In this document: positions 51,011 through 64,000 of the stretch, piece by piece
Layout of the letters: each line of letters starts with the position of its first letter
Position numbering within the stretch: the stretch's first letter is position 1
Sequence record: NZ_CP040051.1
From: a plasmid
DNA length: 64,000 nt
Reading direction: 5' to 3' (one strand)
Position numbers and translations under genes: made by a program
Notes under the pieces: model-generated
The model's database searches: none
Seen by the model: only the letters and a program-made list of their open reading frames with translations
What the model was told of the DNA's origin: nothing

Positions 51011-51352
51011 GTGCAGTTTAATTCAAGCTCGTGCCTTAATAATGACGAGATGAGAACTATGAAAGAGTCACAACAACAAGACATTGAACTGTCTTCTTCT
51101 TCAGATGAATACAGTACGTGGGGGAATCCTCGCAATTCTCTGAATGTAGATGTTAGAACTAAAGAGTTCTATTCAAATCTGCTTACGCGCATTATCAACT
51201 TCAAGATTATTGTTCTTGTTGCTTTGACATTAGTTGTACTTGCACAAGTTGCCTATATCGCTGTTAAAAGAAATTTTGAACAGCTTGTTTTTGATGATGG
51301 TTCAAGTACTCCTTGTATTTATAACCCTCTAACTAAAACCTTTCGGCAATAA
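51011..51352 (+). CDS. small single-TM protein, IcmM/DotJ-like by position
   Basis: One TM ('IIVLVALTLVVLAQVAYIAV'). First gene of the plus-strand T4BSS block. The start is likely an internal Met. Confidence 0.3.
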   Translation: MQFNSSSCLNNDEMRTMKESQQQDIELSSSSDEYSTWGNPRNSLNVDVRTKEFYSNLLTRIINFKIIVLVALTLVVLAQVAYIAVKRNFEQLVFDDGSSTPCIYNPLTKTFRQ

Positions 51353-51369
51353 TAAGCAAGGAATAGGTA

Positions 51370-52086
51370 ATGTCTGAACAAAAGCAGAATCAGAACCCGA
51401 AAACTAAACCTCGTTTTCCAACTACACCAGAACAGGTTAATAGTGGGTTGGTCGAAATGGCCAAAAAGAATGATGAACTTGAAGACAAGATTAAAAGTCA
51501 ACGTCGTCAATTATTAGGCTGCATTATCGGTATTGGTGTGTTGGGTACAGCAGTTGCAGTACTTGGTGGCATTATTGGATTGATGCCAAAAGTCGAATAC
51601 TTTCAGACCGTCAATAATGAAGTAATTTGTAAAATCAATCCGAATGACAATCCTGCATTTACTGACGTAAATGTTGCTGAATTTGCTTCGGAAGGTTTGC
51701 TAAATGCCTATTCACTTGATTATCAAAATGCTGACGCTGATATCAATAACACTTTACGCCGTTACTTCACAGATCGTGGGCGTGAAAGCTTCATTACTAC
51801 ACTACGTCAATCAGGTTTGATTGACCAAATCCGTAACAATTTCTTAGTCCTTAGAACTTCTAAGCTGCAAACACCTGAAGTCGCTAAAAATAATGGCATT
51901 GATAGTCGTGGCAATCGATTCTGGATTGTTATGCAACCAGTTCGCATGGACTACTTCAACGGTAAATCTCAACCGGCTGATACTCGACAATATATGGCTG
52001 AAATTCGTGTTGAAGTTACGCCACGTGATGTCTATAACCCGAAAGGTTTAGGTATCGCCAGTATCGTTTTACGTGCAAAAAATTAA
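51370..52086 (+). CDS. icmL: bitopic inner-membrane protein, IcmL/DotI-like
   Basis: Single TM ('LLGCIIGIGVLGTAVAVLGGIIGL') followed by an approximately 170-aa periplasmic domain. Position is upstream of the icmK-like gene. Confidence 0.45.
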   Translation: MSEQKQNQNPKTKPRFPTTPEQVNSGLVEMAKKNDELEDKIKSQRRQLLGCIIGIGVLGTAVAVLGGIIGLMPKVEYFQTVNNEVICKINPNDNPAFTDVNVAEFASEGLLNAYSLDYQNADADINNTLRRYFTDRGRESFITTLRQSGLIDQIRNNFLVLRTSKLQTPEVAKNNGIDSRGNRFWIVMQPVRMDYFNGKSQPADTRQYMAEIRVEVTPRDVYNPKGLGIASIVLRAKN

Positions 52087-52103
52087 TTTAGGGAAGTCTC
52101 AAG

Positions 52104-53234
52104 ATGCAGCTAAAGTTTAAAAATCTTGCACTGAGTATGGCGCTAGTCGTTGCTGGTAGTTCTTATGCTGAACCAAGCCAACAACAATCAGGCCAGCAAC
52201 AGCAAGCTACGGCGCAGCAAACTGTGCCTTCTTCTCAACCACAGGGTAATAACCAATCTCAAGGGAATAACCAGCAACAAGGTCAACAGCAAGCCAATAA
52301 TCAACAGGCTCAAGCTGAAGCGCCTTCGTATATTGGAACACCTCCACCAAATACGATTAATTTAGGTAATGTTCAAACTTTTGGTAATTCGTTCCCACCA
52401 CCAGTACGTGTAGCGAAAACTAAAGATGAGATTGTTGCTGAAATTTTAAGTATGGAACTTACCCCGCAACAGGTTAAAAACATCAAGGATCTGCTCTTAC
52501 GTCAAGAGCGGGATGCTTCTACACCATATACGACAACGGCGCGACCAATTGTACGCTCTGTTCCAATTGATTTGAGCCCAGCAGCTCAACCGCCAGTCTT
52601 ACGGCTTTCTATGGGCATGTTAACCAGTATTGTTTTTAGCGATCTGAGTGGTAATCCGTGGGAAATTGAAAAAGTTACGTTCAACAAAGAACTGTTTGCA
52701 GACGACAGACCAGAACAAGGGCAGGGTCAAGGTGAAAAATCTGATATTTCATCTAAAAACACGAACATATTTTCAATTGAACCTCTTACCGCTACCGCTT
52801 ACGGAAACGTGACAGTACGTTTAAAAGGTTTATCAACACCAGTAATTTTCATTTTAGCCACTGGTCAAAATGAAGTGGATATGCGTATTGATGCGCGACT
52901 AGCTGGGCGTAGTCCAACATCTGTCAACTCTTCGTTACGCGCAAATATGAATGCCACTGGCGTTATGTCGAGTATTGATAGCCAGACACTACTATTTCTA
53001 GATGGTACGCCTCCAGTAGAAGCAGAACGCATTAGAACTTCAGATACAAGTGTTGAAGCTTGGAATTTTAACGGTCAATACATTGTTCGTAGTAACGATA
53101 CAGTGCTTTACCCAAGTTATAAATCAACAGCACGTTCAACAGGCGGCACAAGTATTTATGTCTATCCGGATCCTATTAATCAGGTAACGATTAGTAGAAA
53201 CGGACAACCGACTACAGTGTATTTTAATAATTAA
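52104..53234 (+). CDS. icmK: outer-membrane core component, IcmK/DotH-like (VirB9-like)
   Basis: Signal peptide, Q-rich linker, beta-rich C-terminal domain. 376 aa, against roughly 360 aa for DotH. Syntenic position. Confidence 0.5.
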   Translation: MQLKFKNLALSMALVVAGSSYAEPSQQQSGQQQQATAQQTVPSSQPQGNNQSQGNNQQQGQQQANNQQAQAEAPSYIGTPPPNTINLGNVQTFGNSFPPPVRVAKTKDEIVAEILSMELTPQQVKNIKDLLLRQERDASTPYTTTARPIVRSVPIDLSPAAQPPVLRLSMGMLTSIVFSDLSGNPWEIEKVTFNKELFADDRPEQGQGQGEKSDISSKNTNIFSIEPLTATAYGNVTVRLKGLSTPVIFILATGQNEVDMRIDARLAGRSPTSVNSSLRANMNATGVMSSIDSQTLLFLDGTPPVEAERIRTSDTSVEAWNFNGQYIVRSNDTVLYPSYKSTARSTGGTSIYVYPDPINQVTISRNGQPTTVYFNN

Positions 53235-53242
53235 GGTGTGCT

Positions 53243-62039: not shown

Positions 62040-62049
62040 TTAAGGTTAA

Positions 62050-62081
62050 GGAAAAAGCTTTCATTTATGAAACCTTTTTCC
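62050..62081. promoter_or_regulatory. 32-bp extended palindrome containing the TTTCAT-TT-ATGAAA operator core
   Basis: GGAAAAAGCTTTCATTTATGAAACCTTTTTCC. The outer arms are perfect, with one inner mismatch. Lies 11 bp after the icmB-like stop. Confidence 0.45.
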
Positions 62082-62102
62082 TTTATTTCAGAAATTTGAG
62101 TC

Positions 62103-62513
62103 ATGAATTTTCACGGTAATTCACTAAGTCAGATTCAAGATAAGATCCAGATCTTAATTTTTGAAAGTGATAAAGAAGAGTCATTTTTAGGTGAAACGAT
62201 TCATTTTTATCAGTTCTGGATTGAACTCTTGTTTTTTCTAAATCAAAAGAAAGAGGTTGAGATTGATATGAGCAAAATACAATCATCAGAAGACCTTCAG
62301 GATTTGGCAGAATTGGCCTACGGTCACTTATATACAAGCTTCATGGAAAAGTATGGCAATGATTACTACCAGACAGTAAAGCCGCTGCGTGAATATCTTG
62401 ATTCGCTGCCAGCTTTTAATCCGGAGGATCCTAATTCTTATGAATCTACTGCCACTAAAGAACAACATGCAAAGATCATTTGTAAATTTTCAAATACCGG
62501 TTTAAAGCAATAG
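62103..62513 (+). CDS. small acidic cytoplasmic protein; possibly an IcmS/IcmW-type adaptor
   Basis: 136 aa, acidic. Located directly upstream of the coupling-protein gene. No motif; assignment is by position and size only. Confidence 0.3.
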   Translation: MNFHGNSLSQIQDKIQILIFESDKEESFLGETIHFYQFWIELLFFLNQKKEVEIDMSKIQSSEDLQDLAELAYGHLYTSFMEKYGNDYYQTVKPLREYLDSLPAFNPEDPNSYESTATKEQHAKIICKFSNTGLKQ

Positions 62514-62519
62514 GGATAA

Positions 62520-64000
62520 ATGATGGCTACACCACGTTTTAAAGGTGCATCGGATAGATTTAAACCGAAGGACCAGCGTGTTGATACACGGGATATCATC
62601 ACTAAAATACACGTAGCTCTTCAAACGTCAGAAGGGTCGATGTATTTTGCCATAACGATCACAATTGTAGTTTTTGTAAGTTTCTTTTTTCCTTTATTAC
62701 TCATAATTGCAACGCCAATTGCAATATTGATCACACGTAAATATTTAATACCCCAGCTTCGCTATATCAATATGCCTTATCGGGTGCCGAAGCATGCAAA
62801 TATGCCAGATGGATCATTCGATGGTGTAGCGCGGAAAGTAAATTTAAGGAAAAACCCTGAAAAAGCTTATGGGCAGGGGGTTTATTATTACGGTATTGAC
62901 CGTCAAAATCATCAGCAAATCTGGAAAAGTGATAGTGATGAACGTGTACATGACTTGCTAATTGGTACGACTGGTGCTGGTAAAACTGAAACCATTAAGA
63001 TGGTCTTGACGAATCCATTACTTCAGAATTCTGGTTTTATCTTATCGGATGCGAAAGGTACGACTGAACTTGTAGCCGAACTTATGTATTTACTGACGCG
63101 ATTCATGCGTCAAGACGATTATCTAGTCACAAACTTCATTACTGCTGGCCGTGATTTGCTGGTACGCCAAGAAGATAAAATGACAAACACATTTAATCTT
63201 ATGTCGTACACTTCTGCTGCAATGTTGAGTGAACAACTCGTCTACCTTCTCGCGGACTCTGAGGGTTCTGGCGGTGACATGTGGAAGGATCGTACCATTA
63301 CCTATTTAACGGCCACAACACACTTATTAACTTTTTTAAGGGATAGAGGATTATTATTACTTGAGCCAAAAACATATGTTGAATACCAAGAGCTCAATCA
63401 ATTAATACGAGCAGCTTACGGGGAAGATTTTGATGATAATTATAAAAATTTTGGTGAGATTTATATTACGGCCGTTTCACCTCTGCGTGCCTACCTTAAA
63501 TCATTAGCAGGGTTTGATGAAGGTAAACTTTACAAACAACCGGAAAAATGTGTTGAGCAGCATGGTTATGTAATCATGCAATTTACTCGTGCTATTTCAG
63601 ATCTTAGTTTTAACTTCGGTCATATCTATGGAACCAAATCTGGCGAAATTGATATGTTCGACGTAGTTCTAAACCGTCGTTGCTTGATCAATGTTTTACC
63701 GGCATTGCAGAATGCGCCCCCAACAATCCGGATGCTTGGTAAACTTTTTGTAGGCTCTATTAAGCAGATGATGGCAGGAGCGCTGGGGAACCGTATCGAT
63801 GGCATGGTACGTAATGTCATTGAAGCGAAAATTACGGCTTCAGCGACATGTTTTAAGATTGTTCTAGATGAGCTGGCATATCAAATCGTAAAAGGCCTGT
63901 CTGTGATCCCAGCTCAAGCACGTGGTTTGACATTCAGCTTAACGTTTTCAGCGCAAGAGCTTAAAGATATCTTCGTTGCCGATGAAGCTGAAGGTGAAGC
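62520..64000 (+). CDS. dotL: type IV coupling protein DotL/IcmO-like (VirD4 family), 3'-truncated by the window end
   Basis: N-terminal TM pair ('FAITITIVVFVSFFFPLLLIIATPIAILI') then Walker A 'LLIGTTGAGKTE'. The frame stays open to the end of the window. Confidence 0.65.
   Translation, partial: MMATPRFKGASDRFKPKDQRVDTRDIITKIHVALQTSEGSMYFAITITIVVFVSFFFPLLLIIATPIAILITRKYLIPQLRYINMPYRVPKHANMPDGSFDGVARKVNLRKNPEKAYGQGVYYYGIDRQNHQQIWKSDSDERVHDLLIGTTGAGKTETIKMVLTNPLLQNSGFILSDAKGTTELVAELMYLLTRFMRQDDYLVTNFITAGRDLLVRQEDKMTNTFNLMSYTSAAMLSEQLVYLLADSEGSGGDMWKDRTITYLTATTHLLTFLRDRGLLLLEPKTYVEYQELNQLIRAAYGEDFDDNYKNFGEIYITAVSPLRAYLKSLAGFDEGKLYKQPEKCVEQHGYVIMQFTRAISDLSFNFGHIYGTKSGEIDMFDVVLNRRCLINVLPALQNAPPTIRMLGKLFVGSIKQMMAGALGNRIDGMVRNVIEAKITASATCFKIVLDELAYQIVKGLSVIPAQARGLTFSLTFSAQELKDIFVADEAEGE

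Follow-up and report, generated by a model that had tools for sequence, protein, structure and literature searches.

Which machine is encoded by the run of Dot/Icm-type genes at positions 51011-64000 of a stretch of the plasmid record NZ_CP040051.1, and to what kind of element does it belong? The whole stretch of 64,000 nucleotides that was analyzed is called the window in the following. A preliminary description of the window had recognized type IVB secretion or conjugation genes and had left the choice between a self-transmissible plasmid, an integrative and conjugative element (ICE) and a second accessory type IVB secretion system (T4BSS). Our analysis sustained the plasmid, for which 37 database records speak, and excluded the other two proposals. 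The region is almost certainly the main transfer region of a conjugative plasmid of the pAB04-1/pA297-3/pAB3 family and encodes a type IVB conjugation machine (mating-pair formation type MPF_I, Dot/Icm-like).

A megablast search with positions 51011-64000 retrieved 37 records. Each of them is an Acinetobacter plasmid with at least 99% identity, and all 37 are complete circular plasmids of 117-263 kb. The identity was 100% for pD4 (KT779035), pA297-3 (KU744946) and pD46-4 (MF399199) and 99.4% for pAB3 of ATCC 17978. Positions 1-25000 of the window are 100% identical to pA297-3 and its relatives, and the best match of positions 34000-51100 was pAB04-1 (CP012007). Compared base by base with pAB04-1 over about 41 kb, the window differed by only six single-nucleotide polymorphisms and three small insertions or deletions (indels) of 1-2 bp, among them a TT insertion at 36987-36988, and it is collinear with this plasmid across all compared sequence. 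Gene order is the same as in the pAB3-family plasmids, and so are the proteins according to their RefSeq WP accessions. As backbone markers the window contains parAB, umuDC and two transfer-gene blocks flanking a divergent spacer; TetR-type repressors of the secretion system of type VI (T6SS) are encoded outside the window, at 139.5-144.7 kb of pAB04-1. PLSDB/MOB-suite assigned MPF_I to all records inspected (pD4, pA297-3, pAB04-1). To judge from these comparisons, the window is a piece of a pAB04-1-like member of this family of large conjugative Acinetobacter plasmids, and the T4BSS described for pAB3, pAB04-1, pA297-3, pD4 and pD46-4 (Weber 2015; Hamidian 2016; Feng 2023) is the same DNA, with 99.4-100% identity.

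The T4BSS itself is thus already known and nothing new; its role in conjugation was demonstrated genetically in 2023 (PMC10746170). The Dot/Icm-like genes of ATCC 17978 had been found in an earlier genome analysis and were later placed on pAB3, where 11 proteins resembling those of Dot/Icm are encoded in two regions with an organization nearly identical to Legionella (PMC10746170). Gene deletions showed that the type IVB system drives conjugation of pAB3 and mobilization of RSF1010 (Feng et al. 2023, PMC10746170), and deletion of dotG abolished transfer of pAB3 (PMC10746170). GacS/GacA governs how dotDCB and dotIHGF are expressed, responding to tricarboxylic acid cycle intermediates (PMC10746170). 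For pA297-3, whose genes carry tra/trb names, PMC7885321, citing Hamidian 2016, gives a high transfer frequency of 7.2e-2 per donor. The demonstrated conjugation of pAB3 and pA297-3 argues for a plasmid and against both an ICE and a Legionellales locus.

The main run consists of twelve co-directional open reading frames (ORFs) on the plus strand, unbroken from 51011 to the end of the window. All ORFs named in the preliminary description were located at the expected positions, on the plus strand and with the expected sizes; the RefSeq annotation of identical plasmids starts slightly later for four genes (51059, 54899, 57743 and 58767). Family profiles and searches against solved structures established a Dot/Icm-type (type IVB) set with DotI, DotH, DotG, DotN, DotO and DotL, and the ORFs were not assigned to unrelated families (Table 1). 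In addition to the family models, DotI matched the solved DotI chain 3wz4 (phmmer, E 5e-4) and TraM (E 2e-15). The match of DotG to NF033900 (E 2e-18) is confined to the C-terminal part, and the protein comprises 543 amino acids (aa) compared with 1048 aa in Legionella, lacking the Legionella repeat region. The Cys-rich gene that had been called icmJ-like turned out to encode DotN, with five Cys residues in an HNH/zinc-like Cys/His cluster. DotL is cut by the window end, so that the window holds the N-terminal 493 aa of a protein that has 912 aa in the plasmid records; its Walker A motif is located at residue 149, and the protein is the VirD4-family coupling protein of the preliminary description. 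All recognized dot/icm genes in the window are intact, full-length ORFs.

The identity of the Walker A ATPase of 1094 aa was established in a different manner. It gave no match in Pfam, NCBIfam or PDB, and because phmmer against PDB revealed no solved homologue, the homology to DotO was taken from tblastn. Using this method, the annotated IcmB/DotO of plasmid p_153kb of Yersinia pseudotuberculosis IP31758 was found with 32% identity over 91% of the length (E 5e-137), and the DotO of Gluconobacter was matched as well. IncI1 TraU was detected by phmmer with E 7e-57 and showed an identity of about 22-25% in tblastn. The icmB/dotO-like assignment made before is thus confirmed.

The companion block at 42213-45114 on the minus strand carries DotD, DotC, DotB and a gene in the position of icmT. 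The first three members of the dotD-dotC-dotB-icmT block proposed earlier were verified, but their order is that of IncI traH-I-J-K and not the Legionella layout. DotD possesses a lipobox-like LTGC motif and DotB a Walker A motif at residue 202. DotM, encoded on the same strand, matched the solved chains 6exa and 6sz9_B (E 1e-12). DotA, which is named DotA/TraY family protein by RefSeq, matched IncI1 TraY (E 1e-16). The DsbC/DsbG-like protein gave weak thioredoxin-family matches in Pfam and a match to IncI1 TrbB (E 8e-4); its gene adjoins dotM in Pseudomonas loci, too (E 1e-46 to 1e-50). Of the features by which MPF_I membership is recognized, DotO, DotB, the DotC/D/H/G core, DotI, DotA and the DotL-DotM-DotN coupling complex are therefore present.

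To go by their homologues in the solved machine of Legionella, DotC, DotD, DotH, DotG and DotF would form a core complex that spans the envelope. DotI, the small transmembrane protein encoded upstream of it and the IcmC- and IcmD-like proteins would be parts of the inner membrane, and DotO and DotB would be the energizing ATPases. The substrate would be received by a coupling complex of DotL, DotM and DotN. DotA and the DsbC/TrbB-like protein, both encoded elsewhere in the window, would complete the set.

The small membrane proteins of the run are less firmly assigned. A scan of genome contigs with a profile from the DotO alignment yielded 31 loci. Since none of these was from Legionella, IncI1 and Yersinia proteins served as proxies for Legionella DotJ, DotE, DotP, DotF and IcmT. 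In a local iterative profile search the DotF-like protein joined the syntenic ORFs of 25 related loci and of Yersinia and also IncI1 TraP (E 2e-11). The IcmC-like ORF at 55792 was linked to the syntenic Yersinia ORF (E 7e-13) and weakly to TraQ (E 0.009), and upon profile iteration the TraR-like family (56475) and the TraQ-like family (55792) merged. The icmG/dotF-, icmC- and icmD-like labels given before are hence backed by links to TraP, TraQ and TraR, but by no family-model match above threshold; these weaker assignments derive solely from the IncI counterparts. For the icmM-like and icmT-like genes position, size and topology fit, but significant sequence support is missing. In 18 related loci the gene immediately upstream of dotI belongs to the family of the 97-aa protein, which resembles neither IncI1 TraL nor any named family in Pfam or NCBIfam, so that icmM-like is a positional statement only. 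The icmT-like gene follows dotB as traK follows traJ in IncI1, and its weak assignment as IcmT/TraK was drawn from position, size and topology.

Two acidic proteins of the run are encoded on either side of dotO. The 335-aa protein encoded between dotN and dotO had three matches among 5.8 billion sequences. An exhaustive HMMER search of 1.84 billion representatives gave six matches, which were the query itself, fragments with 96-97% identity and three relatives at 33-35%. In the loci of Yersinia, Massilia, Paracidovorax, Acerihabitans, Tabrizicola, Gallionella and Zoogloea the slot between dotN and dotO is occupied by a gene of 391-427 aa without detectable similarity to the Acinetobacter protein, and in the Pseudomonas loci it is empty. 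An AlphaFold2 (AF2) model of the 335-aa protein, calculated with three sequences, reached a predicted local distance difference test (pLDDT) score of 32.8 and was too poor for a fold search. The second protein, of 136 aa, is the small acidic protein of the preliminary description, which was correct in this point (Table 1). It aligns with residues 214-337 of the Yersinia type IV coupling protein (E 5e-7), and an iterative profile built from it picked up all DotL/TrbC proteins of the set. In the Acinetobacter relatives with 70% identity a separate ORF of this type was not detected; dotO and dotL are separated there by a gap of about 60-75 bp.

Table 1. Features of the transfer regions in the window, with the searches or properties on which each assignment is based. 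Abbreviations: aa, amino acids; TM, transmembrane.
Feature	Coordinates	Strand	Evidence
DotA/TraY family inner-membrane protein, 882 aa	21209..23857	+	TIGR04346 E 2e-76, 258 bits (cutoff 100)
Periplasmic DsbC/DsbG-like thiol:disulfide isomerase, IncI TrbB counterpart	37961..38914	-	NF008657 DsbG E 3e-14
DotM/IcmP (TrbA-like), coupling-complex subunit	38987..40357	-	PF23127 DotM_C E 2e-28; NF033890 E 4e-26
249-aa protein between dotM and ParM-like gene	40376..41125	-	no Pfam, NCBIfam or local match
ParM/StbA-type actin-like ATPase	41139..42197	-	Pfam StbA_N, ParM_N, ALP_N, MreB-like_C; PDB ParM E 1e-3
Small two-TM protein, IcmT/TraK position, 84-88 aa	42213..42479	-	NF038220 E 0.023, 14.9 bits (cutoff 40)
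DotB (TraJ), PilT-like hexameric ATPase	42482..43771	-	TIGR02524 E 1e-60; PDB DotB 6gef E 9e-55
DotC (TraI), outer-membrane core-complex protein	43784..44602	-	PF16932 E 2e-38; PDB DotC 6x62_AC E 4e-23
DotD (TraH), lipoprotein	44644..45114	-	PF16816 E 7e-8, 33 bits (cutoff 27); NF033882 E 8e-6
Divergent intergenic spacer	45115..46050		15-23% GC core at 45200-45800
Divergent tyrosine-recombinase-like protein, 634 aa, NCBI name "integrase"	46051..47955	+	catalytic-position conservation
97-aa single-TM protein directly upstream of dotI, DotJ/IcmM or TraL position	51059..51352	+	position, size, topology
DotI/IcmL (TraM)	51370..52086	+	PF11393 E 9e-18; NF038072 E 3e-20
DotH/IcmK (TraN), outer-membrane core-complex protein	52104..53234	+	PF12293 E 5e-45; PDB IcmK 6x62 E 4e-30
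DotG/IcmE (TraO), VirB10-like, short form	53243..54874	+	PF03743 TrbI E 2e-9; PDB DotG E 1e-10
DotF/IcmG (TraP)-like bitopic protein	54884..55753	+	NF038218 E 0.007, sub-threshold; one TM segment
IcmC/DotE (TraQ)-like polytopic membrane protein	55792..56370	+	TraQ NF033883 E 0.019; three TM segments
IcmD/DotP (TraR)-like small membrane protein	56475..56894	+	IncI1 TraR E 2.5e-5; weak T4SS_pilin E 0.003
DotN/IcmJ (TraT), zinc-binding coupling-complex subunit	56973..57731	+	NF038221 E 2e-11; PDB DotN 5x42/6sz9 E 6e-6
Acidic 335-aa lineage-restricted protein between dotN and dotO, pI 4.5	57743..58750	+	no family match
DotO/IcmB (TraU), VirB4-class ATPase, 1094 aa	58755..62039	+	tblastn and phmmer; Walker A at residue 554
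136-aa acidic protein (pI 4.7), stand-alone paralogue of DotL all-alpha domain	62103..62513	+	profile and alignment
DotL/IcmO (TrbC), type IV coupling protein	62520..64000	+	PDB IcmO/DotL 6sz9_A E 1e-84; NF041447 TrbC E 8e-70

A comparison with IncI1 plasmids (R64/ColIb-P9-type), the prototype of MPF_I, revealed the same arrangement in both blocks. The order traH-I-J-K corresponds to DotD, DotC, DotB and the IcmT-like gene, and the order traL-M-N-O-P-Q-R-(S)-T-U corresponds to the run from the small transmembrane gene to DotO; counterparts of TraY, TrbA, TrbB and TrbC are present as well. In contrast to IncI1, the window encodes no NikA/NikB relaxase, an extra orphan gene is inserted between dotN and dotO, dotL follows directly after dotO, and the small protein upstream of dotI is unrelated to TraL. 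ParM-like and tyrosine-recombinase-like genes within the transfer region are a further difference. The ParM-like gene is located between the IcmT-like gene and dotM and is separate from parAB at 32937-34703. It matches a ParM-like protein of Yersinia p_153kb (E 5e-49), which is encoded in a comparable position near the T4BSS genes.

The nearest relatives of DotO outside Acinetobacter (32-34% identity) group into one clade, in which the genes are arranged in the same order. It includes Yersinia p_153kb/pVM82, several Pseudomonas kib-like loci and loci of Massilia, Paracidovorax, Lautropia, Acerihabitans and Tabrizicola. Yersinia pVM82/p_153kb and the Pseudomonas loci share the order small transmembrane gene-dotI-H-G-F-icmC-like-icmD-like-dotN-dotO-dotL. 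Yersinia resembles the window further in having a ParM-like gene, a divergently oriented dotDCB block, a tyrosine-recombinase-like gene and a spacer gene between dotN and dotO, whereas the Pseudomonas loci have neither of the last two. From their organization the Pseudomonas loci look like the kib cluster.

Several results weigh against a functional conjugative plasmid. RefSeq annotates no relaxase on pAB04-1 (1-152 kb) or anywhere on pA297-3. The motif HxDx(2-12)HxH was absent from all real ORFs of at least 100 aa in the window, in pAB04-1 (54-152 kb) and in pA297-3 (35-172 kb). With this regular expression for the His triad NikB of IncI1 was detected as a positive control, and the only further hit, inside brxC, proved to be a spurious ORF on the antisense strand. 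The preliminary description had proposed to search the AT-rich region 45115-46050 for an origin of transfer (oriT) or relaxase motifs. The region contains AT-rich imperfect repeats and palindromes only, with no GC-rich hairpin or recognizable nic motif; in a plasmid with no known relaxase family such a motif search is not meaningful. MOB-suite classified 17 of the 37 plasmid records as non-mobilizable. In PMC7885321, pD4 and pD46-4 are reported as non-transmissible. Finally, in comparison with pAB04-1 and pD4 this copy has an extra TT at 36987-36988, which puts a backbone gene of 322 aa (36102-37070, minus strand) out of frame, so that transfer proficiency is unproven for exactly this copy.

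Further searches for a relaxase gave a similar picture. No protein compared with IncI1 showed similarity to NikB, and no Pfam relaxase family was found in the scanned ORFs, which included ten large unannotated ORFs of pAB04-1 and the window and ten ORFs flanking related loci. MOB-suite assigned 20 of the 37 records to MOBP, and the ORF behind this call could not be identified. The family of pAB3 and pA297-3 conjugates efficiently without a recognizable HUH relaxase. The 616-aa "TraC" from transfer region 2 of pAB04-1 was considered as a relaxase and rejected: inspection by eye showed an EGxxxG stretch followed by DND, as in TOPRIM primase-like proteins. Its gene lies outside the window (6795-8645 of the pAB04-1 extract), near genes for an SLT transglycosylase and a type IA topoisomerase. 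Earlier papers name it "inner membrane complex ATPase"; the TOPRIM-like motifs suggest a primase-like protein.

The non-transmissibility of pD4 and pD46-4 and the TT insertion could mean that this copy is transfer-defective like pD4 and pD46-4, its genes being a decaying conjugation system. These two plasmids are 100% identical to the window at 51011-64000, and the frameshifted 322-aa gene belongs to the operon downstream of dotM. The intact state of all recognized dot/icm genes argues against this explanation, and the gene that is interrupted by ISAba25 in pD4 (12263-15997 in the window) is intact here. The TT insertion may reflect either a sequencing error in a homopolymer or a genuine pseudogene. 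We regard a defective copy as unlikely, although it is the best surviving of the alternatives.

A slightly less probable alternative, which we consider doubtful, is that the machine also translocates protein effectors into bacteria or host cells, the plasmid being the vehicle of a secretion system too. This possibility was raised by Feng et al. (PMC10746170), and it is thus a speculation voiced by the field itself. The relatives of DotO in Yersinia and Pseudomonas are consistent with it: the Yersinia yT4BSS was reported as a virulence factor for which no relaxase or oriT was found (preprint 10.1101/2024.06.14.598817), and for the kib T4BSS of P. putida IsoF the killing of bacteria was reported (PMC9519443). 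The identity of DotO to IncI TraU amounts to only about 24%, and the window contains many orphan genes as well as genes for polyvalent proteins (LPD1, strawberry-notch). However, no effector, no effector-immunity pair and no adaptor of the IcmSW type was identified, the sole demonstrated substrates are pAB3 and RSF1010 DNA, and the equation of the Pseudomonas loci with the kib cluster was derived from their organization. The Yersinia and IsoF systems differ from the Acinetobacter system in that virulence or interbacterial killing was reported for them, in which neither a relaxase nor an oriT was found and conjugation was not shown, whereas the latter was shown to conjugate. The idea of the preliminary description that the element is a vehicle for effector-like cargo found no support here; the known cargo consists of antibiotic resistance genes and T6SS repressors.

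That the genes are part of an ICE or of a chromosomal genomic island is very improbable. Related T4BSS clusters do occur in chromosomes, namely in a kib-like island on a complete Pseudomonas chromosome and on a 1.7-Mb contig of Lautropia, and a recombinase-like gene is present in the window. Against this stand the circular plasmid topology of all near-identical matches, the collinearity with pAB04-1, the presence of both parAB and a ParM-like system and the lack of a tRNA gene in the window, in which tRNA and Rfam scans gave no match.

The resemblance to Legionella required a closer comparison, since the locus could belong to a Legionellales organism, as its canonical chromosomal Dot/Icm effector locus or as a second T4BSS. 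The gene order icmM...icmB of Legionella is indeed reproduced: the run is collinear with lpp0514-lpp0522 (icmM-L-K-E-G-C-D-J-B), with similar gene lengths (PMC6761968), but this order is equally common to IncI traL to traU. A GC content of 35-41% would also be compatible with such a source. Compared with Legionella region II, one extra gene is located between icmJ and icmB, and the upstream part icmT-S-R-Q-P-O-N is absent. In Legionella the pair icmP-icmO precedes icmN, whereas in the window dotL comes after dotO, and dotM, which does not adjoin dotL, is a neighbor of the dotDCB block; the IcmT-like gene is found beside dotB, and the placement of dotL and dotM fits neither Legionella region. 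DotG has half the Legionella length. Direct sequence homology to the solved Legionella chains of DotB, DotC, DotG, DotH, DotI, DotL, DotM and DotN was found (phmmer against PDB), but the similarity is distant, with E values from 1e-84 (DotL) down to 5e-4 (DotI). IcmS, IcmW, LvgA, IcmQ, IcmR, IcmF, DotU and DotK had no Pfam or NCBIfam match in the window ORFs scanned, and the names IcmS/W/Q/R/F, DotU and DotK are absent from the RefSeq annotation of the whole plasmid. In contrast to the translocator of Legionella and Coxiella, the Acinetobacter system is carried by a plasmid and serves to conjugate DNA. The nucleotide identity of 99-100% to complete Acinetobacter plasmid records, and to these only, rules out a Legionellales locus, whose chance we rate as practically nil; the contig is therefore not the canonical chromosomal locus that the preliminary description had named as the opposing case. 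A phage-like interpretation was considered and rejected.

If the conjugative plasmid lacks a recognizable relaxase, which protein could process its DNA? The family may use a non-canonical enzyme, and by analogy to TcpM of Clostridium pCW3 the best positional candidate would be the recombinase-like protein encoded at 46051-47955, acting at or near the AT-rich core of the spacer; we put this forward as a tentative and rather improbable idea. The ordinary explanation for such a protein is a role in multimer resolution. The spacer lies between the two transfer operons, and the promoters for dotDCB and for the recombinase-like gene are located in it, where promoter-like sites were not enriched; in pAB3 the dotD promoter is regulated by GacA (PMC10746170). 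The spacer would be a candidate cis-acting site.

The integrase gene mentioned in the preliminary description corresponds to this recombinase-like gene. Residues R180, K206, R546, H569 and Y579 of the protein are invariant among the Acinetobacter homologues. In a cross-genus alignment the Arg, Lys, Arg and His positions were invariant and the Tyr column (Y325, equivalent to Y579 of the window) was 90% conserved; the homologue from the chromosomal locus of Lautropia has no catalytic Tyr. The Pfam model Phage_integrase matched the family weakly, below threshold in seven of ten members (best E 2.5e-4). The family profile retrieved only noise from PDB, and the single sequence had no match there. 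An AF2 model of the 634-aa protein, calculated with ten sequences, had a mean pLDDT of 42.8, again too poor for a fold search. Homologues hold the same position in the T4BSS loci of Yersinia, Massilia, Paracidovorax, Lautropia, Acerihabitans and Tabrizicola, and the gene is syntenic with this T4BSS clade in at least seven genera, in loci of the plasmid type. It was not detected in the chromosomal kib-like loci of Pseudomonas.

A central variable insert in the recombinase-like ORF contains imperfect repeats of 18 bp/6 aa (46919-47348). The 16-mer core CCGTAAACGGAATAAA (at most three mismatches) occurs six times in the repeat insert, within 46937-47348, and 11 times in the window, compared with 0.7 occurrences expected by chance. 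The insert varies in length among plasmids and is confined to the Acinetobacter versions. The literature reports no identifiable rep gene for this plasmid family, and several homologue loci or plasmids outside Acinetobacter have a recognizable rep gene nearby. As the repeats are restricted to the Acinetobacter versions, whose plasmids have no known rep gene, a relation of the region to replication would be an alternative.

In Acinetobacter the plasmid family is a major vehicle of multidrug resistance, with genes such as armA, blaPER-7, sul, tet(B) and at times blaNDM, and these plasmids also repress the T6SS of the host. Recognition of the region therefore matters for annotation and typing, where an MPF_I/type IVB label competes with an MPF_F label. 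A survey of 2024 assigned the pA297-3/pAB3 plasmids to MPF_F (PMC11702686). This label is clearly at odds with the genes, which are those of MPF_I/type IVB, the type that PMC10117892 also states for this plasmid family.

Among the remaining genes of the window, parA/parB and umuD/umuC, which the preliminary description had listed as neighbors, were confirmed by profile scans. An AbiEi-like (DUF6088) protein and an AbiEii nucleotidyltransferase are encoded as a pair at 29205-30891 (plus strand), just upstream of umuDC, and resemble a toxin-antitoxin or abortive infection module. Between the recombinase-like gene and the dotI operon (47955-51011) lies a cluster of small orphan ORFs. Here the window agrees with pAB04-1, and the indels that distinguish it from pD4/pA297-3 measure about 114, 536 and 204 bp; an ORF of 148 aa (49041-49487) is included in one of them. 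The 625-aa protein encoded at 24501-26378 (plus strand), for which an M23 peptidase domain and a weak signal of an SLT transglycosylase were detected, probably remodels peptidoglycan for the assembly of the type IV secretion system. Three genes on the plus strand encode polyvalent proteins. The first (1-4910), a strawberry-notch helicase/N6-methylase, is cut by the window start and has 1986 aa in pA297-3. The other two contain an LPD1 domain and comprise 1244 aa (12263-15997) and 552 aa (27438-29096). The 1244-aa protein, whose gene is the one carrying ISAba25 in the non-transmissible pD4, shows a zincin-like HEWFH motif.

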